Source: an uncultured Planctomycetota bacterium
Lineage (GTDB): Bacteria > Planctomycetota > Brocadiia > Brocadiales > Brocadiaceae
Assembly: GCA_963709355.1 (NCBI GenBank)
Contig: CAVPVY010000005.1
Coordinates: forward strand, 1,193,722 to 1,225,721
Direction of reading: 5' to 3'
Length of the DNA stretch: 32,000 nt
The position numbers and the translations under genes are program-made. Shown piece after piece: positions 4,229 to 26,347 of this stretch. Under the pieces are notes generated by a model. It worked only from the letters and a program-made list of their open reading frames with translations, searched no databases and was not told the DNA's origin. The stretch's first letter is position 1. Every line of letters starts with the position of its first letter.

Positions 4229-4236
4229 TCAAAGGT

Positions 4237-8373: not shown

Positions 8374-8423
8374 TAGAAAAAGAAGAATTAAATCTCATTA
8401 ATTATAAATAGAGTAAGAAATCT

Positions 8424-11367: not shown

Positions 11368-11370
11368 TAC

Positions 11371-12825: not shown

Positions 12826-12834
12826 ATAATAACT

Positions 12835-14295
12835 ATGAAAAGAAAAATGATGTTAATTAACCCGCATAACCCTGGTAGATGCGGGGAAGAGAGTATTACG
12901 GTAATTGTACAGATGCCTCTGAATCTTGCTTATATTGCTGCCCTTACACCCGGTGATTGGGAATTTGATGTCATTGACGAAAACGTTGATCTCGCAATGG
13001 ATAATAATGGTGAAATTACCTTTGCTCCTGTTGATCTAGTATGTATTACTGCAGTTACTTATCAATCTCCTAGGGCATATAAAATTGCCACTGCATGCAG
13101 AAAGAGGGGTATGCCTGTAATTATGGGTGGTATACATGCCTCTGTAATGGCAGAGGAGGCTGTAAATTACGCCGATGCAATTTTTGTAGGCGAGGCAGAG
13201 GAGGTATGGCCGCGGGTAATTAGGGACTTTGAAGCAGGTAAACTGGAAAAGGTTTACAATGGTGGTTTACCCCCCCTATCCTTGATGAAAAAAGTATATC
13301 CTAATCGTGAACTCATGAAAAGGAAATACAATTATAAATTCTCGTCCATCGTTACAACTAAAGGATGTCCAAATTACTGTGACTTCTGCAGCGTTCCAAC
13401 ATTCCAAGGTAGAAAATTCAGGGAGAGACCATATGAAGACGTGCTTGACGAAATGGTCGCGACGGATTACAAGGGACTGATGCTTGCAGAAGATAATTTC
13501 TACGGACACGGAAAAAAATCAAACGAAAGGGCAAGAAATCTTTTTAAAGGAATGGTGGAAAAAGATATTAAAAAAGATTGGCTGGGATTCACAGCCCTGA
13601 ACATATCTCAGGATAAAGAAACTTTAGATTATATGGCTAAAAGTGGTTGTTTTGGAATGCTTATAGGTATTGAATCAACCAATGAGACTGTCTTACAGAA
13701 AATGAATAAACGTGTAAATTTGAAATTGGGTACAGATAGTTATTTTGATTGCATCCAAAAGATCCACGATGCAGGATTAGTTGTTTGGGGCTCTGTAGTA
13801 TTTGGCGCCGATGGTGATGATAAAGATTCCTTTAAGAGGATGACAGACTTTATAATTGAAAATAATATTGATATTTTAACATTTGGAATAAATTGCCCCT
13901 TCCCAAAGACACAATTATATGCAAGATTGGATTCTGAGAAGAGGATCTTCAGGAAGAATTATCCTGAGGATTGGCAATACTACGATACAGCGCATGTCGT
14001 TCACAGATTTGTTGACATGACACTCGAAAATTTCATTGACGGTATGCAGTATGTATACAATCATATTTACGCAGACAATAACTTAAGGACCCGTTTCAGG
14101 AACTCAATCAAGACTACAAACAACCCAAGAAATTCCATGTTTGCATTCAGGGTAGGCTCTGATTGGAAACAGGTATTTGAGCAGGTATTGCAGAACTTAA
14201 AAGAATTATACGATTCTGGTGATTATTATGTTGATTGCTATAAGTCAAAGGCTGTAACAGTTGAAAAACCAATTTTGGAAACTGCCACATCATAG
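12835..14295 (+). CDS. Cobalamin-binding-domain radical SAM enzyme (class B)
   Basis: An N-terminal B12-binding-like Rossmann region (DLVCITAVTYQSPRAYKIATACRKRGMPVIMGGIHAS) is followed by a CPNYCDFCSV CxxxCxxC motif. Confidence 0.85.
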   Translation: MKRKMMLINPHNPGRCGEESITVIVQMPLNLAYIAALTPGDWEFDVIDENVDLAMDNNGEITFAPVDLVCITAVTYQSPRAYKIATACRKRGMPVIMGGIHASVMAEEAVNYADAIFVGEAEEVWPRVIRDFEAGKLEKVYNGGLPPLSLMKKVYPNRELMKRKYNYKFSSIVTTKGCPNYCDFCSVPTFQGRKFRERPYEDVLDEMVATDYKGLMLAEDNFYGHGKKSNERARNLFKGMVEKDIKKDWLGFTALNISQDKETLDYMAKSGCFGMLIGIESTNETVLQKMNKRVNLKLGTDSYFDCIQKIHDAGLVVWGSVVFGADGDDKDSFKRMTDFIIENNIDILTFGINCPFPKTQLYARLDSEKRIFRKNYPEDWQYYDTAHVVHRFVDMTLENFIDGMQYVYNHIYADNNLRTRFRNSIKTTNNPRNSMFAFRVGSDWKQVFEQVLQNLKELYDSGDYYVDCYKSKAVTVEKPILETATS

Positions 14296-14590: not shown

Positions 14591-16030
14591 TTGCCTGATA
14601 GGAACTCAACCTTTGACCTTGCTATCATTGGTGGAGGTCCAGGTGGTTATGTAGCTGCAATAAAAGCTGCCCAATCAGGATTAAAAACTGCTCTTGTTGA
14701 AAAGAATAAAGTCGGCGGTACATGTTTACATCAGGGTTGTATTCCAACAAAGGCACTTCTTTACTCCGCGGATCTTTATAAAAAGTTCCAACGGGCAAAT
14801 GAATATGGAATTACAACTGATAAATTAACTTTTAATTATTCACAGTTTCATCGTCGTAAAGAAACCGTTGTTAAGCGCTTATTTCAAGGGGTTCAATTTT
14901 TACTTAAAAAAAACGGTGTCGAGGTTTTAGAAGGTGAAGGATATATCACATCGCCAAATAACATCTCTATACGAAAAAACAAAACGGAAATTGGCAAGAT
15001 AAATGCTAAATATATTATACTTGCAACCGGGTCTATTCCTCTCATACCTATTTCAATTCCATACGATAAGAAATATATACTTACAAGCGATGATATTTTA
15101 GTACTTGAAGAAATACCGAAGTCCATCATAATTGCAGGCGGTGGTGCCTTAGGGATAGAATTTGCCCATCTATTTAATATACTCGGGTCAAAAGTTACAA
15201 TCATAGAACTTCTAGACGATATCCTCCCGTTTGAAGAAAAAGAAATCAGTAACACGTTGAGAAAGATATTTATTAAAAGAGGTATAGATGTTTTCACCAG
15301 TACCTCTCTTGAAAAAGTTGAAATTAATAATTGTGCTAATGTTACTATAAAGAGAAAAACATCTCAACCCCCTATTGGCACTGAGAATCCTGCTTATCAA
15401 AATGAACTTTTAAAGGCAGATTGCTTGCTTCTCGCATTAGGCAGAATACCCGCATTAAGTAATATGGGCTTAGAAAGTTTATATTTGAATTCTAAAGGAA
15501 AATCTCTTAAAACCAATGAAGTAATGGAAACAAGCCAAAAAGCAATTTTTGCAATCGGAGACATTACAGGCAATCCTCTTCTTGCCCATAAAGCCTCAAA
15601 ACAAGGCTTAATTGCTGTAGATTATATTACAGGAAAGAAACCGAGTCAGTTAAATTATCAGAATATCCCTAGGGTAACTTACTGTTCTCCACAAGTTGCC
15701 AGTATTGGGATTACTCAGGAAGAGGCAGACAAAAAAGGATACAAAATAAAAACTGGAAAATTCCCTTTTGCAGCTAATAGTAAGGCAATTATAGATGGGG
15801 ATTTTGAAGATGGGTTTATGAAAATTATCGCTGATGAAAAATACGGTGAGATTTTAGGACTTCATGCAATAGGACCAAAAGTTAGTGAGTTCATATGGGG
15901 TATATCCCTTACTACTATACTTGATGGAACAGCTTATGAACTATCAAATAATATATTTCCCCACCCTACTCTGTCTGAAGCTATTTTAGAAGCAGCCCTT
16001 GCTGTGATTGGTAAACCAATCCATAATTAG
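14591..16030 (+). CDS. lpdA: Dihydrolipoyl dehydrogenase
   Basis: IIGGGPGGYVAA FAD motif, the redox-active disulfide GGTCLHQGCIPTK, and C-terminal HPTLSEA. TTG start. Confidence 0.9.
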   Translation: MPDRNSTFDLAIIGGGPGGYVAAIKAAQSGLKTALVEKNKVGGTCLHQGCIPTKALLYSADLYKKFQRANEYGITTDKLTFNYSQFHRRKETVVKRLFQGVQFLLKKNGVEVLEGEGYITSPNNISIRKNKTEIGKINAKYIILATGSIPLIPISIPYDKKYILTSDDILVLEEIPKSIIIAGGGALGIEFAHLFNILGSKVTIIELLDDILPFEEKEISNTLRKIFIKRGIDVFTSTSLEKVEINNCANVTIKRKTSQPPIGTENPAYQNELLKADCLLLALGRIPALSNMGLESLYLNSKGKSLKTNEVMETSQKAIFAIGDITGNPLLAHKASKQGLIAVDYITGKKPSQLNYQNIPRVTYCSPQVASIGITQEEADKKGYKIKTGKFPFAANSKAIIDGDFEDGFMKIIADEKYGEILGLHAIGPKVSEFIWGISLTTILDGTAYELSNNIFPHPTLSEAILEAALAVIGKPIHN

Positions 16031-16043
16031 TCTGTCTAACTAT
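16025..16043 (+). repeat. attL core (AATTAGTCTGTCTAACTAT)
   Basis: Identical 19-mer to 24571-24589. It contains the final AAT codon and TAG stop of lpdA. Confidence 0.75.
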
Positions 16044-16121
16044 TGTGTTTTGTATTACACTACCTCAAATCCCTTGTAAATACAGATAATTCACGGATTT
16101 TATAGTTTAACATCATAAACC

Positions 16122-16142
16122 TAAGTCGTACCTGAGTCGTAC
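16122..16142 (+). repeat. Inner direct repeat TAAGTCGTACCTGAGTCGTAC (candidate integrase arm-type site, attL side)
   Basis: Perfect 21-mer also found at 24427-24447. It contains GTCGTAC twice, 10 nt apart, and sits 8 nt from the integrase stop codon. Confidence 0.6.
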
Positions 16143-16150
16143 CCTTTCTA

Positions 16151-17320
16151 TTATGCTATGGCTAAATTAACCTTCTTGCTCATAGTTAACACATGGTCTG
16201 TTAACTTTTGAATAGCCATTTTCTTGCTATCTAATCCACCATGAGAATAACGCACCGTCATATCTAAGGTAGAATGCCCTAACATCTCTTTAGTAATTAT
16301 TGCACCAGTTCCCAAATCTGCTTGTAATGATGCGAAGGTATGTCTGAGATTGTGGAAGGTGAAATTCTGAATGCCTAAACTCTTAAACAGATTACTAAAA
16401 TAAGTGCTAAATTCCCTTACTAAGAGAACGTTTCTTTTCTCATTGCCAAAAATCATACCCCCCGTTTTATCTCTATACCCTTGCAGTTTCTCAGCTAAAT
16501 AGCTTGAAAGTGGAATTATGACCGCCTTCCCTGTCTTGTTTTGTGTGAACGTTATCAAGCCTTTAACGAAGTCTATATCCTGCCATTGAAGGCTTAACAC
16601 TTCACCAAGACGCATTCCGGCAAAAAGTCCCATCGCTACCATAAGTCTATCTTTCCCTTGCAGTCTATCAAGCAGTAATGCTATTTCTGGCTGTGATAAT
16701 ATCCTGTCTCTGGTCTGTGTTATTTTAAATGGCTTAACGTCTTTACATGGATTTCTTTCAATAATACCCGCCTTTATTGCAGTCACAAACACATTTGACA
16801 AGATAGAAACATCAAGGTTAATACTGCTATCCTTGACCTTATTCTTTTCTTTACGTTCAATTCTATACTTTTCAATAATAAATGGCGTTATCTTATTCAG
16901 TGGATAATCACCTAAAACGGCTACCAATGCTCTTATTGCCCGCTTTTTCATTGCAAGCGTGTTTTCTTTCGCTCCCCCGTTTGATTCCATGTATGTTTTT
17001 GAATACTCCTTTAATGTGGGAATCGTCTTTTTACATGGTAGATTAAACTTACCCCTGAGTATATCCGTTTTGATGATTGAAAGGAAATGCTCAGCTTCAG
17101 TCTTTGTCTTGATTTCTGGATATACCTTTGAAACCCACCGTCCGTCTGGATGCCTGAAATCTATTGCCCAAGTCCCACATTGAGACGGTACACCTTCAGG
17201 ACAAACCCTTGACCGCTTGCCTTCACATTCAACGCCTTTTATAATGACCCTGCCGTGTTTATCCCCTTCGGTTCTCTTACCCTTGCATTGTGGGAAATAT
17301 TTCCTAAATCTTACTGCCAT
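16151..17320 (-). CDS. Tyrosine recombinase / phage-type integrase
   Basis: C-terminal catalytic motifs GMRLGEVLSLQW, FHNLRHTFAS and LGHSTLDMTVRYSH. There is an N-terminal Cys/Lys-rich arm-binding-like extension. Confidence 0.9.
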   Translation of the reverse strand: MAVRFRKYFPQCKGKRTEGDKHGRVIIKGVECEGKRSRVCPEGVPSQCGTWAIDFRHPDGRWVSKVYPEIKTKTEAEHFLSIIKTDILRGKFNLPCKKTIPTLKEYSKTYMESNGGAKENTLAMKKRAIRALVAVLGDYPLNKITPFIIEKYRIERKEKNKVKDSSINLDVSILSNVFVTAIKAGIIERNPCKDVKPFKITQTRDRILSQPEIALLLDRLQGKDRLMVAMGLFAGMRLGEVLSLQWQDIDFVKGLITFTQNKTGKAVIIPLSSYLAEKLQGYRDKTGGMIFGNEKRNVLLVREFSTYFSNLFKSLGIQNFTFHNLRHTFASLQADLGTGAIITKEMLGHSTLDMTVRYSHGGLDSKKMAIQKLTDHVLTMSKKVNLAIA

Positions 17321-17561
17321 TATTCACCGTCCTTTCTTCTCTATCAATCCATTCCCTGATTTCTTTTGGCAGGTACATATTTCCACCTAGTGGATTGTTA
17401 GTTATATACCTGCCCTTTTCACGCAATGCAAACAGTGCCGCTTCTTCTACCGATGCACCAGCATAAGCTCTGGAATATCCACCGCCAAAATGCCCTGTTA
17501 CATCACAATAATAATTATCACCCCTTTTATACACTATGATACTACTTGGTCTTTTTTCCAT
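17304..17561 (-). CDS. Hypothetical 85-aa protein, overlaps the integrase start by 17 nt
   Basis: ORF with a purine-rich RBS (GGAAAGGGAAAGG) directly upstream. No recognisable motif. Confidence 0.45.
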   Translation of the reverse strand: MEKRPSSIIVYKRGDNYYCDVTGHFGGGYSRAYAGASVEEAALFALREKGRYITNNPLGGNMYLPKEIREWIDREERTVNNGSKI

Positions 17562-17576
17562 GCCTTTCCCTTTCCT

Positions 17577-17629
17577 GAAATAAAAAAGGCAGTTAAACTA
17601 AGTGTAGGACGGTACACCTAGCCACTGCC
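17577..17629 (-). terminator. Terminator-like hairpin immediately upstream of the 85-aa/integrase gene pair
   Basis: On the minus strand, GGCAGT...ACTGCC (17629-17588) has internal AGGTGTA/TACACTT pairing and is followed by TTTTTTATTTC. Confidence 0.45.
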
Positions 17630-17756
17630 TCTTATTGCCTGAATAAACAGGCATGTATTGTTTGCATCCCGTCCAATGCCTTATCCTACGTACGTTTAAC
17701 GTACCTTTAGAGTATTGTCAAGTCTTTTTATGTATTCTTATCATTTCTTTTTTATA

Positions 17757-17785
17757 TTGACGTATTATCATAAGCTTGTTAATAT
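17757..17785 (+). promoter_or_regulatory. Promoter predicting a leaderless transcript for the plus-strand module
   Basis: TTGACG (17757-17762), a 17-nt spacer, then TAATAT (17780-17785). The ATG at 17792 lies 7 nt after the -10 element, and no SD sequence is present. Confidence 0.45.
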
Positions 17786-17791
17786 TCTTAT

Positions 17792-18088
17792 ATGAGTGTA
17801 TATGAACAAGTGAAACAAGCATTACAGGATATCGTAGCCCCTGAGTTAAAATCAATCCAAGTGGAGCTACGGCGTCTTGATAACAGGATTGATTCCGTAG
17901 ATAAAAGGATTGATTCTGTAAAATCAGAAATCACCTCCGAAATTGATTCTTTAAAAACGGTCTTAACAGCAGAAATCAAGCGTTTAGACTCCAAAATAGA
18001 CTCCCTTGATGATAAGATAGATACCGCCATTCAAATAAGAGAACGCCTCGCAACACTAGAAGCAAAACTTGCCGCTATGGGAAATTAA
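17792..18088 (+). CDS. 98-aa coiled-coil repeat protein (RIDSVDKRIDSVK / KRLDSKIDSLDDKID repeats)
   Basis: Heptad-like charged repeats with an ATG start. The antisense 80-aa ORF is Ser/Ile/Leu-rich, which is the typical shadow of a Glu/Lys/Asp-rich frame. Confidence 0.55.
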   Translation: MSVYEQVKQALQDIVAPELKSIQVELRRLDNRIDSVDKRIDSVKSEITSEIDSLKTVLTAEIKRLDSKIDSLDDKIDTAIQIRERLATLEAKLAAMGN

Positions 18089-18090
18089 AC

Positions 18091-18195
18091 ATGAGTAACC
18101 TTGCTATACTTTTTGCCATTATTTGTGTAATTGGATTAATTGGTATTTTCTGGACACGTTACAGCCAGAAGCGTCATACTAAACAACCCCATTGA
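18091..18195 (+). CDS. 34-aa single-TM micro-protein (MSNLAILFAIICVIGLIGIFWTRYSQKRHTKQPH)
   Basis: Found by hand translation. It starts 2 nt after the coiled-coil gene stop, has a hydrophobic helix plus a basic tail, and overlaps the convergent dam 3' end by 17 nt. Confidence 0.35.
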   Translation: MSNLAILFAIICVIGLIGIFWTRYSQKRHTKQPH

Positions 18196-19060
18196 ATAAC
18201 TGTGTTTTAGTTTCAAAATTGCAGGAAAGGACTTCAACTGTCTTTGGTTTTTCAGTTCCCGGCACTGCTTTATGACTACCCTTGAAAGATTCATAAACAT
18301 ATTTATTCCAGCCTTGATATAATTCATCATATAAGTCATTCTGGTAATGTGTAACCATTGCCCTACCCTTTACGTTATGAAGCAATCCTGCAAGCCTGTA
18401 ATGGTCTTGCTCTGTGAAGGTATCTAAGTAATAAGTTTCATGCTTAAAGTATGGTGGATCAACATAAAATAACGTTTGTGGACTGTCATAACGACTGATA
18501 CATTCCGGATAGTCAAGGTTCTCAATACAAACGTTCCTGAGACGCTCTGCAATAATATTAAGGTCTTTTATAACGTTCCTGAAGCTCTGGACTGGATTCC
18601 TGCCTGTGGTAGAAGGTACAGCAAAACCACCCCGCTTCTGGTCTCCTGCAAAGGTAGTTCTATTGAGATAATACCACTGTGAGACACGCTCAATTTCGTT
18701 CTCAGGTATATCCCCAGCCTTCCAGTTCTTTCGTATCTCTTGCCATAATTGACGTGAGTAAGGCATGTAGTTAATGCATTCAATCAACGTTTGTCGGGTT
18801 TCAGGCTGTTGGATTACCCTAAAGAAGGATATCAAATGACCGTCTATATCATTTAAAATTTCCACAGGTGAATGCTCTTTTGCAAAGAATAAATGACAAG
18901 CTCCGCAAAACGGTTCAACGTAACAGGTATGCTCAGGGATATGTTGAGTTAACCGGCTTACAAGGTAATATTTCCCGCCTATGCGACTAACAGGGCTTTT
19001 AAGCACGACACCCATCAGTGTTTCTCGACTCCTGAATGCGTGCTTGAATCCACTGGTCAA
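18179..19060 (-). CDS. DNA N6-adenine methyltransferase, Dam (D12) class, orphan
   Basis: SRIGGKYYL, EPFCGACHLFF (SAM-binding FxGxG-like) and FYVDPPYF (DPPY catalytic motif). The true start may be the internal Met at 19015. Confidence 0.85.
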   Translation of the reverse strand: MTSGFKHAFRSRETLMGVVLKSPVSRIGGKYYLVSRLTQHIPEHTCYVEPFCGACHLFFAKEHSPVEILNDIDGHLISFFRVIQQPETRQTLIECINYMPYSRQLWQEIRKNWKAGDIPENEIERVSQWYYLNRTTFAGDQKRGGFAVPSTTGRNPVQSFRNVIKDLNIIAERLRNVCIENLDYPECISRYDSPQTLFYVDPPYFKHETYYLDTFTEQDHYRLAGLLHNVKGRAMVTHYQNDLYDELYQGWNKYVYESFKGSHKAVPGTEKPKTVEVLSCNFETKTQLFNGVV

Positions 19061-19223
19061 GGTCTGACTTTCGGAATCTGTTCAGCTTGCCGATTTTACA
19101 AAAGGGTATCTGACGCCTCATACACATACTGTAAATTGTGCTTAATTTTATCCCCAAATAATCTGCCGCTTGTTGCGGTGTTAAAAGCCCCCCGCCACCT
19201 TCTATGACCTTCAATTCAGGCAT
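18999..19223 (-). CDS. Excisionase/AlpA-family helix-turn-helix DNA-binding protein
   Basis: LLTPQQAADYLGIKLSTIYSMCMRRQIPFCKIGKLNRFRKSDLDQWI matches the excisionase-family HTH pattern. Confidence 0.75.
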   Translation of the reverse strand: MPELKVIEGGGGLLTPQQAADYLGIKLSTIYSMCMRRQIPFCKIGKLNRFRKSDLDQWIQARIQESRNTDGCRA

Positions 19224-19229
19224 AATTTA

Positions 19230-19436
19230 TTACACTCCAGAAATTGGTATCGTTTCTACTGGTCCCACTTTGGTACCAGTAGAAATAAGGTTATTTTTAA
19301 TAAGATTCCCACTTTCTAAATTCTCAATATGCTTCTTAATTTCAATAGCATCTCGTAAGAATGCTTTGACTTTGTTCATTTCGTGAATGTACTTCAGATA
19401 AAAATATTCGATTTCTTCAAATTGTGTTTTTTTCAT
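19230..19436 (-). CDS. Hypothetical 68-aa protein
   Basis: ORF in the leftward operon. No motif recognised. Confidence 0.4.
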   Translation of the reverse strand: MKKTQFEEIEYFYLKYIHEMNKVKAFLRDAIEIKKHIENLESGNLIKNNLISTGTKVGPVETIPISGV

Positions 19437-19569
19437 TTGTCACCCCTTCCAAATCCCCAGCAATAGTTTCAAGACATTGCCTGATTTCATTGTCTAAAAT
19501 CTCATTGACTTTTTTTGGGTCTCGCTCAGCCGCTATAATAGGACTTATCCTGTTTGGTATGTTTAGTAA

Positions 19570-19896
19570 CTAATCTCTCAATAGACGTCCCTTCGCAAAA
19601 GCGGCTTCCCGCACGTCCTTTGCTAGAATTAGCTCCCCACTTCGTTCTTTGTATTCCAACTCAGCCAGCAACGCCTTGAAGTGTTCTTTAACGGCTCGTG
19701 ATTTCGCTAAATCTTGATTTTCAGAATGTTTTAAAAACTTTGCCTCGTGCCATTTAATAACTCTTGGCAATTCAAATTCATGTTCTTTACCATTAAATTT
19801 GGAAGGACATCCGCTGTTACACCAATTTTCAATAGTGGTTCGTGATACTTTGAAAGCCTGTGCAAGCTTACTTTTTCCTGTAATTTTCATTGACAA
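19570..19896 (-). CDS. Nu1-type HTH / small-terminase-like protein, truncated by an in-frame TAG (see findings)
   Basis: The N-terminal KSKLAQAFKVSRTTIENWCNSGCP...FELPRVIKWH resembles the phage Nu1/TerS HTH. The same frame stays open for 50 more codons after the TAG. Confidence 0.6.
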   Translation of the reverse strand: MSMKITGKSKLAQAFKVSRTTIENWCNSGCPSKFNGKEHEFELPRVIKWHEAKFLKHSENQDLAKSRAVKEHFKALLAELEYKERSGELILAKDVREAAFAKGRLLRD

Positions 19897-19977
19897 TAAC
19901 CCTTAAAAATTTCCCTCTAACTGGTTAAATCCTGCGGTCGTTTCGTCCCTGCACGTAAAGGATTGTTGGAAGTACCT

Positions 19978-20445
19978 TTAGGACACACCGCAAACCTTTG
20001 TCCTGCCTGATTCAACCGCCTTCAAATATGCTAAATAGCTGTTGAAATTATTCATAAATTCAGCCCGGAGTGTAGCATTGGTTTTCCATTTTTCTTCAGG
20101 AGTCATCGGCTTCGGTTCCGGTGTTGTTCTTTGTGGTACGGTCGGAATTGACGCCCTTATTCCAGCGTCTTTTAGCATATTAAATAAATTCAAAGCGGCT
20201 TCAGCCCTTGCTCGCATTTCTTGAGTAACTTTGATTTCTTGTTTAGGTTCAGGTATTTTGTCAAGAAATTTGTAGGTATGTCCTGCTAGGGTTTCAAACA
20301 CCCGCTCTGACACTTTCTTTAGCCTATCGAAGCATTTAATATTTTTTCGCTCTCCCATAAATACCATCCGCCCCACAGAGTTTCGCACCATAACGAAATC
20401 ACTCTCGACAATTTTTTCATTTCCATCAGCAAATGTTTTTTCCAT
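19978..20445 (-). CDS. Hypothetical 155-aa protein
   Basis: ORF with a GGGAG RBS. It has a Pro-rich linker and a C-terminal amphipathic region (EEKWKTNATLRAEFMNNFNSYLAYLKAVESGR). Confidence 0.5.
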   Translation of the reverse strand: MEKTFADGNEKIVESDFVMVRNSVGRMVFMGERKNIKCFDRLKKVSERVFETLAGHTYKFLDKIPEPKQEIKVTQEMRARAEAALNLFNMLKDAGIRASIPTVPQRTTPEPKPMTPEEKWKTNATLRAEFMNNFNSYLAYLKAVESGRTKVCGVS

Positions 20446-20481
20446 ATTTAAAGCTCCCTATTAAAAAGTTTATAAAAGTGA

Positions 20482-20514
20482 GGCAGGCAGGAAAATGAGG
20501 AAATCCTGCCCGCC
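20482..20514 (-). terminator. Intra-element hairpin (terminator-like) between two unknown genes
   Basis: On the minus strand GGCGGGCAGGA pairs with TCCTGCCTGCC (10 of 11 positions) and is followed by CACTTTTATAAACTTTTT. An adjacent CCACC-GGCG-GGTGG mini-hairpin lies at 20513-20526. Confidence 0.4.
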
Positions 20515-20529
20515 ACCCGCCGGTGGACG

Positions 20530-20928
20530 CTATTTAATTCTAAATGGTGTTGCATCGTCCCGTCGCTTGAAACATACCAATCCGTAATTATCAAAATCCG
20601 GCTGCACGTACTTAAAAACACCAATTTCGTGTCCTTTTCCTATAAGGTTAAATGAATTTAAGCCGTCACAAAACACGGCAGCGCCTGGTTTTGCCTTACG
20701 TACATTTGAAATTTTTACGAGAACACCGCCTCTGGTAATGACTAACACCCGCCCCCCCTCAATTCCCGTCCTGTCAATAAACCCCAAAAAGCCGTCGTGC
20801 TCTCCCGTAATAGGGACCGCCTTGCCGTAACTCAACCCCACCGGGTGACCTTTTTCTAAACCTTTTCCGCCTGAAAAAACTCCCGATTTCCTCTTTACAC
20901 TGGTATCAAACGCCCGTGCTATTTCCAT
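20530..20928 (-). CDS. Hypothetical beta-rich protein (about 132 aa)
   Basis: I chose the start at the Met preceded by AGGAGG (MEIARAFD...), not the ORF-track start at 20964. Gly/Val-rich; weak resemblance to small phage capsid-associated (DUF2190-like) proteins, from memory only. Confidence 0.45.
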   Translation of the reverse strand: MEIARAFDTSVKRKSGVFSGGKGLEKGHPVGLSYGKAVPITGEHDGFLGFIDRTGIEGGRVLVITRGGVLVKISNVRKAKPGAAVFCDGLNSFNLIGKGHEIGVFKYVQPDFDNYGLVCFKRRDDATPFRIK

Positions 20929-20947
20929 TTTTACACCTCCTAAAAAG

Positions 20948-21331
20948 TTAAGAATTAATTTCACTGTTCTTAAACAATTTTAAAAATTCCAAATGAATAT
21001 ACCACCAGTCGTTGCATGTTTTCTGAAATTCCGTAAAATCGTTTCCCCAAAAACTGTTTATTCTATCTTCCAACCGTAAACTTTCTTGAAAACGTTCAGG
21101 ATGTTTCCCCCTTGCATAGTCTAGAACGCCGGAAGGGTAATTCTGATTGATTTTTTTAGTGGTATCCATGAAGTAACATTCAAATTTATCCATAGGCATA
21201 ATCTTGCCTGCTTCGATTAATTGACTTGCTGATTGTTCAGATAGTTTTACAATTTGCCCCTTTTTTATCTCTTTCGTTCCCTCTGGAGTTTTTGCAGAAA
21301 AATCTTCAATTACCTCATAGCGTAATGTCAT
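20948..21331 (-). CDS. Hypothetical 127-aa protein, ATGA-coupled to the primase-helicase gene
   Basis: Its start codon overlaps the stop codon of the upstream gene (GCATGACA). No motif recognised. Confidence 0.5.
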   Translation of the reverse strand: MTLRYEVIEDFSAKTPEGTKEIKKGQIVKLSEQSASQLIEAGKIMPMDKFECYFMDTTKKINQNYPSGVLDYARGKHPERFQESLRLEDRINSFWGNDFTEFQKTCNDWWYIHLEFLKLFKNSEINS

Positions 21332-23298
21332 GCTTCCACCTCTATGCTTTCGACCGCAAAAGGTACGTCTAAAGCCAGTTTTTTTTGTTCGTTTTTACCC
21401 TCATTTTTCTTGTTCCCGACACCTGCGAAATCTTCGGTACGAGAATCGTTTTTTGTGAAATTGTCGGTACGAGAATCCGGCTTACAGCCGTGTGGGTTTC
21501 CAGCCATTTTCTTATTCTCGTATTCTTGTTTTACGTATAGGTCTGGTACGAGAATACGAGAATACAAAAACGGGTCTCCGCGGCTACCTTTCCCATCTCT
21601 TTTGACTCCCCCCGCTGATACCAGTTCTCTTATTGCTTTACGTTTTAGTGCGGTGTTGCCTTCTGTTTCTTTTACAATTAGCGGCTCTGTGACTGGCGCG
21701 GTTTGTGTTAATAGAAACGCAATTATTGCCTTTTTCATCATGTTTACGTCTTGCTCTTGCCTTGTCCCCCCAATAGTGACAGTTCTTGTTTCTCTGTCAA
21801 AATTCAGTATTGTTTCTTCCAAATCATCTCCGTACCTTTGAATGGTTTGCAAGGTTCGATAGTGTTCGTGTCTTTTCATCACCATTAAGGTATCCACTGT
21901 GCCGAAAATTGCCGTGCTACCTAACACAGAATCGCCGCCGTCACGCTGTCCTTTAGATGAATGATGAACACAAAGAACATGAACTCCACTGTCCCTTGCC
22001 AACCTGAGTAAAGGATCGAGAGCATTTGTAACTTGTATATAATCATTTCCGTCTTTCACTTTCGTTAACCTGAATAGTGGATCTATTATAATTAAGACAG
22101 GGTTTAGACGTTCGGTAGCCTCTCGAATTTGTTTTATAGCATCAACTGGAGTGCCTCCGGTGTAAATATGGAGTTCCTCATCACCGTTAGCACCCATATC
22201 CAGGAAATGTTTTTTAACTTCTGCCCTTTTTTCTTCTAGCGCAAGGTATATTACAGCACCCTGTGTAACGCCACTATTGAGAAAAGATTCGCCTTTAGCA
22301 ACATGTAAACCCAGCGTTCTTGCAAAGGTAGATTTGCCCACCTTAGGCTTTGCAACACAAATAGAAAATCCACCAGAAGGCAATATTCCATCAACCAGCC
22401 ACGTCGTCGTTTCGGCAGGTTCTTTTAAAAGCGCACTAAGTTTCGTAAGTGTAATACCCGCTTTTTGCTCTTTGGTGTGTATCCATTCAGAAGCATTCTT
22501 TACAATTTCAATCAGTTTTGATTTATCATTACCGGCTATCTTTGACCAATCAAGAACGTCCTCAGCTTCAGAGAGTCCAAGAAGTTCGACAACTTTTAGT
22601 TCTTTAACTTTGCTATGCAATGCATTAGCAAGCTTGTAAGCGTAATTCCCGCCCGATGTGTCATTGTCTGGCAGGACAATTACTTTTTGCATGCTTCTAA
22701 AAATTTTAATATATTCGTCTTTTATAGGTGAATTTGCCCCAGAATCAAGACAGGTAGCAACCAAACCCCAAGAGTTTAATAAGTCTGCTTTTGCTTCACC
22801 CTCTACAATAAAGCAGTATTTCGACTTGACAAGCTCTGGCAAGTTATAAAGGACAGGATCGCATCCACGCCCTAAAACGCACTTGTTACCTTCTAGGTGT
22901 TTAAATATAAATTCTTTTAAACGCCCATTACGTCCCGGTTCCAGCCTTTCCTTGATATAAAGCAAACTGCCTGTAGCATCTTTATACTCGAATTTTGCCA
23001 CAACTTTTGGCTTTATATCCGACTCGACAGCCCCAGCAATTTTCCCTATTTCTTTTAGCGCCGTTGGGAAATCGGTGTCCTGAAACCGCTTGTAAAAATC
23101 GAAAACATCGCCCTTCGCATCGCATGAAAAACAGTGGAAAAGCCCCGTTTCTACATTTACGGATAAGCTTGGATGGTCGTCATCATGGAAGCAGCAAAGT
23201 CCGGTAGCTTCCTGCTTGTCGTTGACTTTCAGAGACGGGACATGATCTCTGTAAAATTTTACCATGTCCAGCCGATTAAGAATTTCCTGCTTATCCAT
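21328..23298 (-). CDS. Primase-helicase fusion (CHC2 zinc finger, Toprim, RecA-like/AAA_25 ATPase)
   Basis: CCFHDDDHPSLSV...FHCFSCDAKGD zinc finger; Toprim IVEGEAKADLL and VLPDNDTSGGNYA; Walker A AKPKVGKST; Walker B LIIIDPL. The start was moved to the ATG at 23298, which is preceded by GGAAGGATGGGG. Confidence 0.85.
   Translation of the reverse strand: MDKQEILNRLDMVKFYRDHVPSLKVNDKQEATGLCCFHDDDHPSLSVNVETGLFHCFSCDAKGDVFDFYKRFQDTDFPTALKEIGKIAGAVESDIKPKVVAKFEYKDATGSLLYIKERLEPGRNGRLKEFIFKHLEGNKCVLGRGCDPVLYNLPELVKSKYCFIVEGEAKADLLNSWGLVATCLDSGANSPIKDEYIKIFRSMQKVIVLPDNDTSGGNYAYKLANALHSKVKELKVVELLGLSEAEDVLDWSKIAGNDKSKLIEIVKNASEWIHTKEQKAGITLTKLSALLKEPAETTTWLVDGILPSGGFSICVAKPKVGKSTFARTLGLHVAKGESFLNSGVTQGAVIYLALEEKRAEVKKHFLDMGANGDEELHIYTGGTPVDAIKQIREATERLNPVLIIIDPLFRLTKVKDGNDYIQVTNALDPLLRLARDSGVHVLCVHHSSKGQRDGGDSVLGSTAIFGTVDTLMVMKRHEHYRTLQTIQRYGDDLEETILNFDRETRTVTIGGTRQEQDVNMMKKAIIAFLLTQTAPVTEPLIVKETEGNTALKRKAIRELVSAGGVKRDGKGSRGDPFLYSRILVPDLYVKQEYENKKMAGNPHGCKPDSRTDNFTKNDSRTEDFAGVGNKKNEGKNEQKKLALDVPFAVESIEVEA
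21434..21565. repeat. Iteron-like cluster of TACGAGAAT repeats (candidate replication origin)
   Basis: TCGGTACGAGAATC occurs at 21434-21447 and 21464-21477 (30-bp phasing). An inverted ATTCTCGTA lies at 21514-21522. GGTACGAGAAT plus a tandem ACGAGAAT lie at 21545-21563. Confidence 0.6.
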
Positions 23299-23394
23299 TA
23301 CCCCATCCTTCCTTTTCAACAACCGCTAAAATTTCAGGCTTTTTGAATACAGTCACATGTTGCATGTTAGTGTTACCCACATTGACAAATTTTT

Positions 23395-24099
23395 TTAGAT
23401 GATTTTTGCCAGCAAATCAAGAAAAGAAACTGCTCTTTCATAATCCTTTTTTGAAATATTTTCTTTCACTGTCCTAATAATTCCCAATATTGCAGCTTTC
23501 TGCGTGCTCCAAAGAATGGTATTTCCAACAATATCTTCGGGAACATACCGCTTGAGAATCAACAAATAATGGATCAAAAGTGCCAAATTTGCATCCTTTC
23601 GATCCTTAAGAAAAGAAAACATTGCCGTCGTAATTTCCTTCAGTAAGACGGGATGATATTGTAAAAAATCTTTAAAAAGCTCTGGTTTGAATTCTGCAAG
23701 ATTTTCAATAAATAAAACAATAAAATCACGGTAATGATTTCCAATAGCGTTCAAAAAGAATTTTTCCGTTCTCCACTTCCTCAGTAGCCCATGACCTACA
23801 TTGACCGCTTTGGCAATGTCCTCGCCCTTCATATTTTTCAAATGGAATAGTGTCGCTTTATATTTTGGATAAAGAAACCCTATCTGCTCACCTTTCGGAG
23901 TTCCTTTCCGGGACGGCTCGATATATTTATCCAATCGTTCGTTTATAAATTTTTCTAACAAGGTTTTGTTTTTTATTGTGTAGTCTCCTAAATAAAATCT
24001 AATCACGGTAACATTATATACACCATTGTTCCTTATGTCAATATAAAAATAAGAATTTTTTAAATTCCTTGTAACTACAGGTAAATTTTTGGTGTGCAT
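23395..24099 (-). CDS. Hypothetical 234-aa protein with a possible internal HTH (first gene of the leftward operon)
   Basis: GEDIAKAVNVGHGLLRKWRTEK resembles a helix-turn-helix. Its position next to attR suggests a regulator. Confidence 0.5.
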   Translation of the reverse strand: MHTKNLPVVTRNLKNSYFYIDIRNNGVYNVTVIRFYLGDYTIKNKTLLEKFINERLDKYIEPSRKGTPKGEQIGFLYPKYKATLFHLKNMKGEDIAKAVNVGHGLLRKWRTEKFFLNAIGNHYRDFIVLFIENLAEFKPELFKDFLQYHPVLLKEITTAMFSFLKDRKDANLALLIHYLLILKRYVPEDIVGNTILWSTQKAAILGIIRTVKENISKKDYERAVSFLDLLAKII

Positions 24100-24329
24100 T
24101 GTTACCCCCTTCAGTAATTACCCCTTGAAAAGAAATTAAGGGAAGCCCGTCAAGGGAACGGGTTGTCGGTAGCAAGCCTATCCCTTAATTAAATTCTATG
24201 CTGGAAAACCCTATCTAAACAAGCATTTTAGACACTCAGATTGGTTTCATTGACCTAAACCACGTTAAAGACTTCTCAATGCGCTTAATCGCTAATTTTG
24301 CCGTATCCTTTGGACTTAAAGAAAACAAA

Positions 24330-24358
24330 ATCACTGGTACCGATTTGGTACCAGTGAT
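24330..24358 (-). terminator. Perfect 12-bp inverted repeat hairpin (ATCACTGGTACC-GATTT-GGTACCAGTGAT)
   Basis: On the minus strand it is followed by TTTTGTTTTCTTT, so it could block read-in transcription from attR. It could alternatively be a palindromic operator. Confidence 0.4.
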
Positions 24359-24426
24359 CCAGTCCTTAACCGGCTATTAAGAAACATAAAATAATTATGC
24401 CAGTTACATAACCATTACATAAAACT

Positions 24427-24447
24427 TAAGTCGTACCTGAGTCGTAC
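24427..24447 (+). repeat. Inner direct repeat TAAGTCGTACCTGAGTCGTAC (candidate integrase arm-type site, attR side)
   Basis: Perfect copy of 16122-16142, with extended imperfect similarity upstream (CAT.A.ATAAA). Confidence 0.6.
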
Positions 24448-24570
24448 TCTAAATAAGAAAACACCAAAACAAACTAAAACACATCAAAACAGGAATACCT
24501 GAAATCCCTTGAATATTCAAGTAAAATCAAGTAGAATAGAAAAGACTAAAACAGGTAAAAAATGCCTTAG

Positions 24571-24589
24571 AATTAGTCTGTCTAACTAT
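24571..24589 (+). repeat. attR core (AATTAGTCTGTCTAACTAT)
   Basis: Identical 19-mer to 16025-16043, in direct orientation. Confidence 0.75.
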
Positions 24590-24649: not shown

Positions 24650-26347
24650 ATGAACAACAAGGCGAAAATTGCGTATTTTTCAATGGAAATTGGTCTCTCG
24701 AACAATATGCCAACTTACAGTGGTGGTTTGGGAGTCCTTGCAGGAGATACTATAAGATCAAGCGCTGACCTTAAAATCCCTCTGATTGCCGTTACATTAA
24801 TTTATAAAAAAGGCTTTTTCCGTCAAGATATTGACCCTGAAGGAAGACAGATTGAATATCCCGCGAATTGGGACCCTTCCAAATATTTGATACATTTAAC
24901 TAAAAAGGTTGATGTCCAAATTGAAGGTCGTAAAGTTTATATTACTGCGTGGAGTTACAAAGTACGAAGTGTTACAGGCGGGGAAGTTGAAATTATATAT
25001 TTAGATACTGACAACAAAGAGAATATAATAGAGGATAGAGAAATTACTGCCAATTTATATGGCGGTGATAATTGTTATAGACTTAAACAAGAGATTGTGC
25101 TTGGTATTGGTGGTGTGCGAATGCTCCATGCACTTGGATTTAATATAAATAAATATCATATGAACGAAGGCCACGCCAGTTTCCTTACGCTTGAATTGCT
25201 GTTAATGACCAAGAGAGATGTTGAAAGCGTCTGGGATGAAAGGTGGATATGGGATTTAGACGCTGTTAAAGAGTTGTGCGTTTTTACTACTCATACCCCG
25301 GTTGAAGCTGGTCATGACAAATATACTTATGATTTAGTAAAAATAGTTCTCGGCGAAGCAGTACCAATTGAGATACTTAAAACACTCGCCGGTGAAAATC
25401 AACTTAACATGACATTGCTTGCACTAAATTTGAGCAAATATGTTAACGGTGTAGCAAGAAAACACGGTGAAGTTTCTAAAGGTTTATTTCCTGGCTATGA
25501 AATTAATGCAATTACAAATGGTGTCCATTCTTTCACATGGACATGTGCAAGTTTTGTGAAATTATACGATAAATATATTCAAGGATGGGCAAACGAACCA
25601 GAGTTATTTGTCCGCTCAGAAATCATACCTGATGAAGAATTATGGGAAGCCCATAGTAAAGCCAAAGATGAATTATTATCTTTTGTAAAGCATACCAATG
25701 GTATCGAACTAAATAAAGAATCATTAACCATTGGATTTGCAAGAAGATTTACTTCATACAAGAGGGCTGATTTAATTTTCAGAAATCTGGAAAGGCTGTT
25801 AAACATTGGTGAGAAATGGAATATACAGATTATCTACGCTGGGAAAGCACATCCAAAAGATACTCCAGGAAAGAATATAATAAAAAGGATTAATGAAATT
25901 GAAAAAACACTCAGGGACAAAATCAGAGTAGTCTTTTTGAAGGATTACAATATTGATATGGCATTAAAACTGATTTCTGGTGTTGACGTTTGGTTAAATA
26001 CCCCACTGCGTCCATTAGAGGCATCGGGCACTAGCGGTATGAAAGCTGCCCATAACGGCGTAATAAATTTCAGCATTTTGGATGGCTGGTGGATCGAAGG
26101 ACATATTGAAGGCGTTACAGGATGGTCTATAGGTCCAAAACCATCTGAATCTTCACTTATCAGCACCATTGATGCAGCTGATGTGGAAGATTTATATAAT
26201 AAATTAGAAAATACAATTGCGCAGATATATTATAATGATAAAGAACAATGGATAAAAATCATGAAGAACTCTATAAGTAAAATTGCCTACTATTTTAACA
26301 GTCACCGTATGATGCGCCGGTATGTAACTGAGGCATATTTAAGATAA
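24650..26347 (+). CDS. glgP: Alpha-glucan phosphorylase (GT35, short GlgP type)
   Basis: AYFSMEIGL...YSGGLGVLAGD N-terminus and the PLP-Lys motif EASGTSGMKAAHNG. Confidence 0.85.
   Translation: MNNKAKIAYFSMEIGLSNNMPTYSGGLGVLAGDTIRSSADLKIPLIAVTLIYKKGFFRQDIDPEGRQIEYPANWDPSKYLIHLTKKVDVQIEGRKVYITAWSYKVRSVTGGEVEIIYLDTDNKENIIEDREITANLYGGDNCYRLKQEIVLGIGGVRMLHALGFNINKYHMNEGHASFLTLELLLMTKRDVESVWDERWIWDLDAVKELCVFTTHTPVEAGHDKYTYDLVKIVLGEAVPIEILKTLAGENQLNMTLLALNLSKYVNGVARKHGEVSKGLFPGYEINAITNGVHSFTWTCASFVKLYDKYIQGWANEPELFVRSEIIPDEELWEAHSKAKDELLSFVKHTNGIELNKESLTIGFARRFTSYKRADLIFRNLERLLNIGEKWNIQIIYAGKAHPKDTPGKNIIKRINEIEKTLRDKIRVVFLKDYNIDMALKLISGVDVWLNTPLRPLEASGTSGMKAAHNGVINFSILDGWWIEGHIEGVTGWSIGPKPSESSLISTIDAADVEDLYNKLENTIAQIYYNDKEQWIKIMKNSISKIAYYFNSHRMMRRYVTEAYLR

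Follow-up and report, generated by a model that had tools for sequence, protein, structure and literature searches.

The window, the whole 32,000-nucleotide stretch of planctomycete DNA analyzed here, carries an integrated mobile element of 8,546 bp at the stop codon of lpdA. Its integrated state is strongly supported by empty sites in relatives, by arm-type repeats inside both ends and by related elements with direct repeats of their own. On balance, we read it as a member of a family of PICI-like phage satellites. Because it encodes integration, replication and packaging genes of its own and no virus-particle genes, it probably travels in the capsids of a helper phage. In the literature library searched, no paper connects anammox bacteria or Planctomycetes with phage satellites.

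The ends of the insertion are marked by AATTAGTCTGTCTAACTAT, a perfect 19-bp direct repeat with two copies and a chance expectation of none in 100 shuffles, 2 mismatches allowed. The initial annotation had proposed an approximately 8.5-kb insertion between these repeats, with the left copy restoring the end of lpdA (14591-16030); both copies proved exact, and the left one does supply the last codon and the stop. A tyrosine integrase recombined the element into a 19-bp site overlapping this stop, and the gene end was regenerated. The empty junction that had been suggested as a check was found in two sequences, a species-level MAG and a 68-kb metagenome contig (L001 and L031; 92-94% nucleotide identity, in L031 over 4.3 and 4.8 kb), where lpdA is directly followed by glgP, a single 19-mer is present and the flanks are colinear. 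The LpdA of L001 is 89% identical to that of the window, and the 19-mer of both sites matches the window copy, with TAA there versus TAG in the window. Among genomes, the closest is 'Planctomycetes bacterium RIFCSPLOWO2_12_38_17'. These empty sites contradict the notion of a conserved core block without flanking repeats. The circular attP junction, also proposed as a check, was not found in one metagenome scan. The exact 20-mer AAGTCGTACCTGAGTCGTAC, absent from the initial annotation, occurs solely at the two inner ends of the element (0 expected); its left copy is a probable integrase arm-binding site. In L015, a Kuenenia-type element, each end bears a related motif, AGGTACGACTT.

Profile searches reproduced the integrase, methylase, Nu1-type gene and primase-helicase of the initial annotation (Table 1). 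Its broader description was also borne out: seven ORFs lack an assignable function, all genes except orf98 lie on the minus strand, and no capsid, portal, tail, large-terminase or lysis family, nor any holin, was matched in Pfam or PHROGs. The element is richer in G+C than the flanks (39.3% vs 35.4%), a difference that is real but modest because the top 2-kb flank window reaches 40.6%.

Table 1. Features of the integrated element, in window coordinates.
Feature	Coordinates	Strand	Evidence and remarks
attL core	16025..16043	.	19-bp repeat = last codon AAT + TAG stop of lpdA
Arm-type repeat AAGTCGTACCTGAGTCGTAC	16123..16142	+	P' arm; two AGTCGTAC units 11 bp apart
Tyrosine integrase, 389 aa	16151..17320	-	PF00589 2.2e-25; phrog_1 1.2e-69; last gene of leftward string
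orf85	17304..17561	-	17-nt overlap with integrase start; no family match
orf98, coiled-coil protein	17792..18088	+	only low-scoring coiled-coil matches
Orphan D12-class (Dam family) N6-adenine DNA methyltransferase	18179..19060	-	PF02086 2e-29; phrog_56 1e-67
Excisionase-family HTH (HTH_17, MerR-like)	18999..19223	-	PF12728 9e-17; TIGR01764; phrog_66
orf68	19230..19436	-	conserved partner downstream of Nu1-like gene
Nu1-type small terminase (TerS) homologue	19417..19896	-	phrog_57 3.8e-16; 159 codons including in-frame TAG
orf155	19978..20445	-	conserved upstream neighbour of Nu1-like gene; no family matches
orf144, ORFan	20530..20964	-	only itself among 5.8 billion clusters
orf127	20948..21331	-	first 44 aa 84% identical to ORF after primase-helicase in L011
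Replicase: CHC2 zinc-finger primase + Toprim + AAA_25 helicase fusion	21328..23322	-	PF13481 6.9e-31; PF01807 1.2e-16
Iteron cluster, ATTCTCGTA x5 (four direct, one inverted)	21438..21563	.	inside 3' end of replicase gene
orf234, HTH protein of large uncharacterised family	23395..24099	-	676 cluster representatives at E<=1e-3
Sigma-70 consensus promoter, perfect (TTGACA-17-TATAAT)	24013..24041	-	within annotated orf234 N-terminus; consensus match only
int-alpA RNA motif (Rfam RF02996)	24122..24188	-	ends 22 nt upstream of orf234 first ATG
Terminator-like hairpin, 14-bp stem + T run	24328..24360	-	strong; between attR and int-alpA RNA
Arm-type repeat AAGTCGTACCTGAGTCGTAC	24428..24447	+	P arm
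attR core	24571..24589	.	second 19-bp copy; rightward = lpdA-glgP spacer known from empty sites

The integrase and methylase are 52-58% and 48-67% identical, respectively, to their counterparts in L008, L015, L017-18 and L019-21, and the methylase range includes L011. The methylase passes TIGR00571 (119.5 bits vs a cut-off of 114.85), and comparison with homologues places its true start probably at Met16 (19015); no nuclease or endonuclease partner was detected. The small HTH protein, initially labelled excisionase/AlpA-type, retains the first half of that label (TIGR01764, 54.5 bits vs a cut-off of 28.8; PF12728), but Pfam Phage_AlpA was not matched; it is a probable recombination directionality factor or regulator filling the AlpA role. 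Among the minor ORFs, orf98 contains a 21-nt tandem repeat at 17879-17920. The orf155 protein shares 32% identity (7e-10) with a 142-aa ORF at the same position in L022, where orf68 also has a positional counterpart (51 aa, 43% identity); the orf68 slot holds 48-55-aa ORFs in L019-21 and L033-35. The N-terminal match of orf127 to L011 marks a mosaic junction. For orf144, a sub-threshold Pfam match to XM1 gp53 minor capsid was obtained (2.7e-3; 18 bits vs a cut-off of 27), and its AlphaFold model is unusable because the pLDDT is 29.

The Nu1-like gene carries a TAG at 19570-19572 (codon 109), leaving an uninterrupted ORF of 108 aa (19570-19896), a feature not in the initial annotation. Its product matches the lambda gpNu1 DNA-binding domain (1j9i), TerS (6hn7_B) and RppC (6hlk) in the PDB; the Phage_Nu1 and DUF1441 Pfam scores are below threshold. 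Genes of cultured phages annotated as 'terminase small subunit' match it over 89% of its length, and the similarity is not limited to the HTH but takes in the coiled coil and the C-terminal region as well. In homologues of 149-177 aa the TAG column is mostly Gln, and all other homologues are full length. The 50 codons after the TAG are in frame, conserved and without decay, which points to a very recent mutation and not to a truncated form under selection. With an amber at codon 109, probably only the DNA-binding and coiled-coil part is made, and packaging by the window copy is therefore probably impaired. Close homologues (52-78% identity) were recovered in four contexts (the window, L019-21, L022 and L033-35), all of them small integrase elements that lack a large terminase; this lineage was found only in such elements. 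In the phage contigs L004, L023 and L025, by contrast, more distant relatives immediately precede the genes for a GpA large terminase of lambda type and a portal of the lambda family.

The replicase has further matches to Toprim (5e-4) and phrog_239 (8.5e-41), and by domain match its AAA_25 part is a RepA/DnaB-like RecA-fold helicase. A total of 836 homologues was retrieved at E<=1e-10, and some homologous primase-helicases carry the names of Ca. Brocadia MAGs; in phage and plasmid collections, no relative exceeded 29% identity. The iterons noted initially at this gene were recovered as five copies of a 9-mer, ATTCTCGTA, all within the cluster, against 0.28 expected in the whole window, and form a probable origin of replication. 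The start of orf234 is uncertain because its homologues begin at about residue 42. Of 47 members of its family, 19 match the small-terminase family phrog_7344 and 12 match PF10668; the window protein itself has no family match at all, and orf234 was not found in sister elements.

The leader of the gene string contains an int-alpA RNA motif, again missing from the initial annotation, which scores 45.6 bits over the full model length (gathering score 35.8). The motif recurs at the same place in L008, L015, L017, L018 and L020 (38.4-40.1 bits), falls just below threshold in L022 (34.5 bits), and displays compensatory changes in four pairs among 6 sequences. In the window and five relatives, 19-23 nt separate its end from a variable first ORF. 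Its score exceeds the curated gathering score and, as expected for RF02996, it sits in an integrase-bearing mobile element, but here it precedes the variable first ORF instead of alpA. Because the motif lies at the integrase-distal end when integrated, only excision and circularisation bring it next to int; in the circle the hairpin would also stand downstream of int. To our knowledge, no function of the int-alpA RNA is known in any system.

Elements of 6-10 kb that form one modular family with that of the window were recovered from Ca. Kuenenia MAGs, a Planctomycetes MAG, and groundwater and other metagenome contigs. The same backbone was found between pyrBI and hom in L015, L017 and L018 (own 19-bp direct repeats), at the 3' end of a tRNA in L012 and L013 (own direct repeats), and in L008, L011 and L019-22. 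The slot of the Nu1-like gene is occupied in L012-14 by a non-homologous small terminase (PF03592, Terminase_2; phrog_51 5e-13), and no recognisable small terminase was detected in L008, L011, L015, L017 and L009. Decay is visible in some copies, with an IS630 inserted in L022 and the AAA_25 gene of L033 truncated. Close relatives of the element are absent from IMG/VR viral contigs, where the relatives are at most 45% identical, mostly over the helicase domain alone.

For the satellite-type layout proposed initially, four of the five PICI core components and the Nu1-like lineage stand in favour; against it stand the amber in TerS, the family members without a recognisable small terminase and the fact that no helper phage, cos/pac site, capsid-size-redirecting gene or particle-associated sequence was identified. 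Two unrelated small-terminase families in one slot are hard to explain unless a packaging function is selected. We hypothesize that, upon induction, the integrase and the HTH protein would excise the element, which would replicate from the iteron origin with its own primase-helicase. The satellite-lineage small terminase would bind the element's own packaging site and recruit a helper's lambda-type (GpA) large terminase and capsids, while the methylase may protect the transferred DNA. The int-alpA RNA could be a cis regulator, perhaps a terminator or attenuator. In the window copy, the small terminase would be reduced to its DNA-binding and coiled-coil part.

A less probable, though serious, alternative is an integrative, self-replicating plasmid-like element ('hitcher') that excises and replicates alone and moves, if at all, in vesicles, by transformation or by conjugative mobilisation from an oriT that escaped recognition. 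On this view, the HTH proteins (Nu1-like and orf234) would be regulators or origin/partition binders derived from terminase DNA-binding domains, consistent with the Nu1 DNA-binding fold being a MerR-like winged HTH with further matches to RacA, BldC, excisionases and MerR regulators. The conserved backbone, limited to integrase, HTH, methylase and replicase, the members without a small terminase, the distant relatives of the replicase in plasmids and phages alike, and the lack of close IMG/VR relatives all fit this explanation. However, no relaxase, T4SS or partition gene was matched, the similarity to phage TerS extends beyond the HTH to the C-terminal region, and the two terminase families sharing one slot also argue against it.

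We consider it improbable that the element is a decaying or domesticated island kept for anti-phage or host benefit, in which the truncated Nu1-like protein would be a decoy poisoning lambda-type phage terminase and the orphan methylase or other ORFs could be extra cargo. Such a decoy has a precedent in Rpp proteins, whose Nu1-like DNA-binding domain lets them heterodimerise with TerS and so stop the packaging of the helper (PMC6739421); the residues lost by truncation are only the 50 conserved ones at the C-terminus, and several family copies carry toxin-antitoxin genes or disruptions. Yet no known defence system besides the methylase was detected in the element, the undecayed codons after the TAG imply a very recent mutation, the other homologues are full length, and the att sites, arm repeats, integrase and replicase look intact. 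Least plausible, to the point of being very unlikely, is a prophage remnant with its structural and lysis modules deleted. The integrase, excisionase, methylase, primase-helicase and small terminase do have phage homologues, but the element is delimited precisely by att repeats, each with an arm site next to it, the same compact arrangement of 6-10 kb is seen in many independent lineages, inserted at different sites, the coding density is high, and no pseudogenised structural genes occur in the non-coding stretches.

Considered as a satellite, the element did not sustain the P4-like comparison made initially, as it has no psu, sid, delta or epsilon homologues and its replicase is DnaG-type, not P4 alpha. 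P4 itself has no small terminase and uses the P2 cos site directly. Shared with P4-like satellites are an integrase, an HTH regulator and a primase-helicase in about 10 kb; reliance on a cos-type helper is plausible for the element, and the sister elements L019-21 carry another replicase, a P4-alpha-type Prim-Pol with D5 helicase.

[quoted passage not shown] Like the element, they are very small, with an integrase, AlpA-type excision factor and primase core and no capsid-remodelling genes, and they have a small ORF running into the integrase start (iolg in PICMIs, orf85 in the element), an analogy of layout only (PMC10803314). In contrast, PICMIs belong to a different host phylum, integrate beside fis, lack a terminase gene and rely on virulent helper phages, which package them as concatemers.

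With PICIs, as defined by their core components (PMC10085698), the element shares its size (8.5 kb vs a median of 9.5 kb), an integrase, a MerR/AlpA-class HTH, a primase-replicase and a small-terminase-type packaging-specificity gene, and the absence of tail, holin, portal and capsid genes. It differs in having no recognisable capsid-morphogenesis gene, in its DnaG-type CHC2/Toprim/AAA_25 replicase, in its gene string, which is co-directional apart from orf98, has the excisionase in mid-string and ends with the integrase, and in the family-wide Dam-family methylase and int-alpA RNA. Its host phylum is Planctomycetota, whereas >99.9% of PICIs detected by SatelliteFinder are in Proteobacteria or Firmicutes. 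The closest PICIs are the Gram-negative cos-type ones, such as EcCICFT073 with Rpp; the packaging gene of the element has a Nu1-like winged-HTH domain, as do lambda TerS and Rpp (PMC10085698; PMC6739421).

The window contains exactly two copies of the 19-mer AATTAGTCTGTCTAACTAT, at 16025-16043 and 24571-24589, and one repeat unit spans 8,546 bp; no chance copy is expected, even with two mismatches. On the left, lpdA, a dihydrolipoyl-dehydrogenase-type gene (14591-16030, 479 aa), takes its final sense codon and its TAG stop from the repeat; beyond the right copy come a 60-bp spacer and glgP, a gene of glycogen-phosphorylase type (24650-26347). The initial annotation had proposed an insertion, for which related genomes should keep an empty lpdA-glgP junction with one 19-mer, and two such sites were recovered. 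A scan of a genome collection with LpdA returned MHYY01000153.1 (locus L001), from the MAG 'Planctomycetes bacterium RIFCSPLOWO2_12_38_17', whose LpdA is 89% identical; its lpdA ends in ...CAT AAT TAA, the 19-mer is present once with TAA replacing TAG, and the same spacer and glgP follow directly. The second, a 68-kb contig (L031), came from a metagenome scan for the 19-mer; it matches the flanks at 94% identity over 4.3 kb on the left and 92% over 4.8 kb on the right, joined at a single 19-mer. The remaining matches in that one scan were five unrelated chance occurrences, with no circular attP junction among them. Insertion was site-specific and regenerated the end of lpdA, and the status of the region as an integrated element is well supported. 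Its G+C content is 39.3% against 35.4% outside; this excess is genuine but slight, since G+C climbs to 40.6% in the richest 2-kb window of the flanks.

An exact 20-bp repeat, AAGTCGTACCTGAGTCGTAC, lies inside both element ends, at 16123 and 24428, with none expected by chance; it is built of two AGTCGTAC units 11 bp apart. Repeats inside both ends are the usual attP arrangement of arm-type sites in lambda-type integrase biology, and we infer that these copies are putative integrase arm-type sites. The element is also present in the same strain in Logan run ERR12037370. This independent assembly breaks twice within it, at about window positions 18019 and 22424, and its two flanking contigs lack the part that runs from orf98 to the primase-helicase, possibly through strain heterogeneity or a coverage difference of an accessory module.

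Outside the element, a ketoacyl synthase, an amine-oxidase/phytoene-desaturase-like flavoprotein and a B12-binding radical SAM enzyme are encoded directly upstream of lpdA (10126-14295, plus strand), a combination which we take to resemble the clusters proposed for ladderane lipid synthesis in anammox bacteria. A tRNA-Leu(CAG) gene at 31295-31378 (minus strand) lies 6.7 kb from the element and is not its attachment site.

Features of the element and of related loci recovered from genome and metagenome collections (L-numbers)
Locus	Feature	Position	Strand	Matches or remarks
Window	Tyrosine integrase	16151-17320	-	PF00589 2.2e-25; phrog_1 1.2e-69
Window	orf85	17304-17561	-	17-nt overlap with integrase start; no family match
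Window	orf98, coiled coil	17792-18088	+	weak coiled-coil matches only
Window	Orphan D12/Dam-family methylase	18179-19060	-	PF02086 2e-29; TIGR00571 above cut-off
Window	Excisionase-family HTH (MerR-like)	18999-19223	-	HTH_17; TIGR01764 54.5 bits, cut-off 28.8
Window	orf68	19230-19436	-	
Window	Nu1-type small-terminase homologue	19570-19896	-	phrog_57 3.8e-16
Window	orf155	19978-20445	-	
Window	orf144	20530-20964	-	
Window	orf127	20948-21331	-	
Window	CHC2/Toprim/AAA_25 primase-helicase	21328-23322	-	PF13481 7e-31; PF01807 1e-16; phrog_239 8.5e-41
Window	orf234	23395-24099	-	
Window	Consensus sigma-70 promoter	24041-24013	-	TTGACA-17-TATAAT
Window	int-alpA RNA (RF02996)	24122-24188	-	45.6 bits, gathering score 35.8
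Window	Terminator-like hairpin	24360-24328		strong
L008	int-alpA motif	67-135		
L015	int-alpA motif	8392-8456		
L017	int-alpA motif	8524-8591		
L018	int-alpA motif	2523-2590		
L020	int-alpA motif	1127-1195		
L022	int-alpA motif	696-763		34.5 bits, just below threshold
L015	19-bp direct repeat	8053/15943		
L017	19-bp direct repeat	8305/16185		
L018	19-bp direct repeat	2304/10211		
L012	Terminase_2-type small terminase	7293-7796		
L013	Terminase_2-type small terminase	7387-7890		
L014	Terminase_2-type small terminase	4379-4882		
L019-21	Gene order			Prim-Pol + D5 helicase, orf189, orf116, Nu1-like, orf48, HTH_17, methylase, integrase
L022	Gene order			AAA_25 helicase, orf183, orf142, Nu1-like, orf51, then IS630 insertion
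L033-35	Gene order			orf120, Nu1-like, orf55, HTH_17, integrase

All genes of the element except orf98 lie on the minus strand, and family searches reproduced every gene assignment of the initial annotation. They also bear out the absence that it had noted of capsid, portal, tail, large-terminase and lysis genes: capsid, portal, protease, tail, head-tail connector, holin/lysis and large-terminase families had no Pfam or PHROG match in any element ORF. Relaxase, T4SS/coupling and secretion families were likewise unmatched among the element ORFs in both collections, on which ground an ICE/IME was rejected; the 'Relaxase_C' score of orf98 (22 bits, cut-off 30) is coiled-coil noise. The element has no means to build a particle or a conjugation channel; an oriT may still be present. 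A capsid-related role for orf144 was considered on a Pfam match to XM1 gp53 and discarded, as the match is sub-threshold (18 bits, cut-off 27), the protein has no homologue but itself, and its single-sequence AlphaFold model is unusable (pLDDT 29). Defence-system cargo was also rejected: PADLOC returned methyltransferase models only, and the MADS-like scores of the HTH protein and the helicase are below cut-off.

The HTH protein matched HTH_17 and TIGR01764, with no match to Pfam Phage_AlpA. Together with the integrase and the arm sites it makes up a self-contained recombination module. The replication module, of iterons and primase-helicase, is self-contained too: the 9-mer ATTCTCGTA has five copies, all within 21438-21563 in the 3' end of the replicase gene, against 0.28 expected per whole window, and the cluster is, as predicted from its sequence, a typical iteron origin. 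GATC is about 3-fold under-represented both inside the element, with 8 sites against 29 expected, and in the flanks, with 25 sites against 76 expected; being depleted equally in both, it was set aside as uninformative on methylase specificity.

At the integrase-distal end, Rfam detected a full-length match to the int-alpA RNA, which stops 22 nt short of the first ATG of orf234. The motif stands at the same place in five sister elements (L008, L015, L017, L018 and L020; 38.4-40.1 bits), and the gap between its end and the first ORF is 19-23 nt throughout. Compensatory changes affect four base pairs among six sequences; the thermodynamic fold of the RNA region alone is no better than shuffles (z = 0.1). 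The evidence for the RNA lies in its covariance-model match and in covariation. The first ORFs of the seven elements do not align, and an HMM of the orf234 family found nothing in the sister loci, so that a common first gene behind the motif was not seen. With a U-rich run after its closing stem, the RNA is a putative cis-acting leader, possibly a terminator or attenuator. The perfect consensus promoter lies within the annotated N-terminus of orf234. Homologues of this protein start near residue 42; at that point the window reads AGGAG and, 8 nt on, an ATA codon, so that orf234 either starts at an uncertain position or has lost its start codon. The orf234 family comprises 676 cluster representatives, and its HTH matches small-terminase PHROGs in 19 of 47 members, the window protein not among them.

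Homologues of the primase-helicase are numerous (836 at E<=1e-10), and loci with 50-72% identical replicases (L008, L011, L015-18, L012-14, L009/10) have the same backbone. The L015-18 elements, from Ca. Kuenenia MAGs and related samples, occupy a site between pyrBI and the homoserine dehydrogenase gene hom and are bounded by a 19-bp direct repeat of their own, AACATTACAAGTATTAATT; the arm-type motif AGGTACGACTT, found at both ends of L015, is common to the window element. Elements L012-14, from Hainich groundwater, are bounded by a 55-65-bp repeat of a tRNA 3' end, and L009/10 have a resolvase and no methylase. By tblastn, the primase-helicase is common to all these loci and the integrase and HTH to most or all, divergent in L009/10 and L012-14, while the methylase is common only to L008, L011, L015, L017-18 and L019-21. 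Some family copies are decaying: L022 has an IS630 transposase (5588-6565) inserted after the Nu1-like module, L008 a duplicated C-terminal methylase fragment (5443-5727), and L033 an AAA_25 gene of only 213 aa (4149-4790). Among viral contigs in IMG/VR, single-protein scans and a replicase profile scan gave no relative closer than 45% identity.

The Nu1-like protein has 21 homologues (149-177 aa, identity up to 78%). The family profile matches the DNA-binding domain of lambda gpNu1 (1j9i, 5e-5) and the TerS chains 7lw0, 7lwr and 6hn7_B, and more weakly the PICI protein RppC (6hlk, 1.9e-3), and the AlphaFold model (pLDDT 79) has 7lwr, 7lw0 and 6hn7_B as top Foldseek matches in the PDB, together predicting a gpNu1-type N-terminal winged-HTH DNA-binding domain. 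In BFVD, entries named 'DNA packaging protein' and 'Terminase small subunit' are among the matches of the model. The reconstructed 159-aa protein matches, over 89% of its length, genes annotated as small terminases in cultured phages, for example in Enterobacter phage Arya. Neither Phage_Nu1 nor DUF1441 reaches its Pfam threshold, and the fold is also found in excisionases and MerR-type regulators. In phage contigs L004, L023 and L025, relatives of the gene immediately precede a GpA large terminase and a lambda-family portal. These relatives are distant; for the close homologues (52-78% identity), every recovered context is a small integrase element, and no large terminase is present in the window element or in any of those contexts. 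Such an arrangement is expected of a satellite-borne TerS. Judged by homology, the gene is a real small-terminase homologue, of a lineage resident in such small elements.

The terminase slot varies within the family. Window orf155 and orf68 are homologous to the ORFs that flank the Nu1-like gene in L022, and in L012-14 the equivalent slot holds a non-homologous small terminase (PF03592 Terminase_2, phrog_51 5e-13). By tblastn, the Nu1-like block is an exchangeable module. A terminase gene could not be recognised in L008, L011, L015 or L017.

In the window, the Nu1-like ORF ends ...GRLLRD at a TAG (19570-19572, minus strand) in a column that is mostly Gln in the 21 homologues. Fifty further codons, reading LLNIPNRISPIIAAERDPKKVNEILDNEIRQCLETIAGDL..., are still in frame, with homologue similarity equal to that of the upstream part. 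TAG serves as an ordinary stop in the host, for example in lpdA, which leaves three explanations for this codon: one very recent nonsense mutation (CAG to TAG), a misassembly, or read-through. The annotated product keeps the DNA-binding domain and coiled coil and loses the conserved C-terminal region, and the copy with the amber codon is probably impaired for packaging. The mostly-Gln column and the intact frame behind the TAG also gave rise to a bolder idea, to which we attach very little weight: a Planctomycetota- and groundwater-specific satellite family with its own Nu1-type lineage, in which the TAG would be a gate and not a defect, full-length TerS being made only upon infection by a helper that recodes TAG as Gln or brings an amber-suppressor tRNA. 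The capacity for packaging would then depend on the helper being there.

We lean, with little more than even confidence, towards a PICI-like satellite, whose small terminase would retarget a helper's lambda-type terminase and capsids to element DNA. Four of the five components that de Sousa et al. (PMC10085698) list as the PICI core are represented: an integrase and a primase-replicase with adjacent iterons and, as candidates, an excisionase-family HTH for the regulation module homologous to alpA, merR or stl and, for the packaging-redirecting small terminase, a homologue that is amber-interrupted in this copy; the size fits, and the forbidden components (tail, holin, portal, head-tail connector) are absent from all element ORFs by Pfam and PHROG. 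A capsid morphogenesis gene had no match; it is frequent in proteobacterial PICIs, and Type B PICIs lack one core component (PMC10085698). Against the satellite reading, our searches returned no helper phage, cos site, capsid-remodelling gene or attP junction, and viral contigs yielded no close relative; the only phage contigs with related small terminases (L004, L023, L025) are distant and high in G+C, and none is a candidate from the host lineage.

A non-satellite integrative replicon is possible but on the whole unlikely. It would suit the family members with no recognisable terminase, yet, to judge by the PICMIs, such members too could be satellites (PMC10803314), and the fact that one slot has received two small-terminase families independently speaks for selection of a packaging function. 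A decaying or domesticated island, its truncated TerS acting as an Rpp-like decoy, is improbable. As for a prophage remnant, the small-terminase homologue is there, the genes that define a defective prophage are absent, and we consider this origin most unlikely.

The nearest genome in the LpdA scan is an unclassified Planctomycetes MAG; relatives of the element are found in MAGs of Ca. Kuenenia, and homologous replicases bear names from Ca. Brocadia MAGs, with a more distant protein, homologous in its N-terminal part only, from Ca. Wunengus. To our knowledge, the phage satellites characterised so far come almost exclusively from Proteobacteria and Firmicutes, with a few from Actinobacteria. 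More than 99.9% of the PICIs detected by SatelliteFinder belong to Proteobacteria or Firmicutes (PMC10085698), and our literature search found no link between phage satellites and anammox or Planctomycetes. This is plausibly the first satellite family for the phylum. If so, the satellite lifestyle would extend to Planctomycetota, a phylum of biogeochemical and wastewater-treatment importance that includes Ca. Kuenenia; lambda-type helper phages would be implied for these slow-growing, largely uncultured bacteria; and the orphan int-alpA RNA motif would gain a genomic role as leader of the main gene string. Should the elements not be satellites, they would still form a widespread, uncharacterised family of small integrative replicons. 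The Kuenenia copies lie in an organism kept in enrichment culture, where excision and packaging could be assayed directly.

Compared with known systems, the element was rejected as P4-like, as Pfam and PHROGs found neither a psu-delta-sid operon nor epsilon and its replicase is DnaG-type, not alpha-type; the P4 alpha-type primase (Prim-Pol + D5/SF3) occurs only in the sister elements L019-21. It was rejected as a cfPICI, having no capsid, portal, protease, head-tail adaptor/connector or TerL of its own. In PICMI satellites, the int-overlapping gene iolg is needed for excision (PMC10803314). The overlap of orf85 with the integrase start corresponds to the position of iolg, a likeness of position only. 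In its presumed working the element most resembles a cos-type PICI. Set beside that system, it has the integrase last and its genes co-directional, and it differs in replicase type, in the family-wide methylase, in the int-alpA leader and in host phylum.
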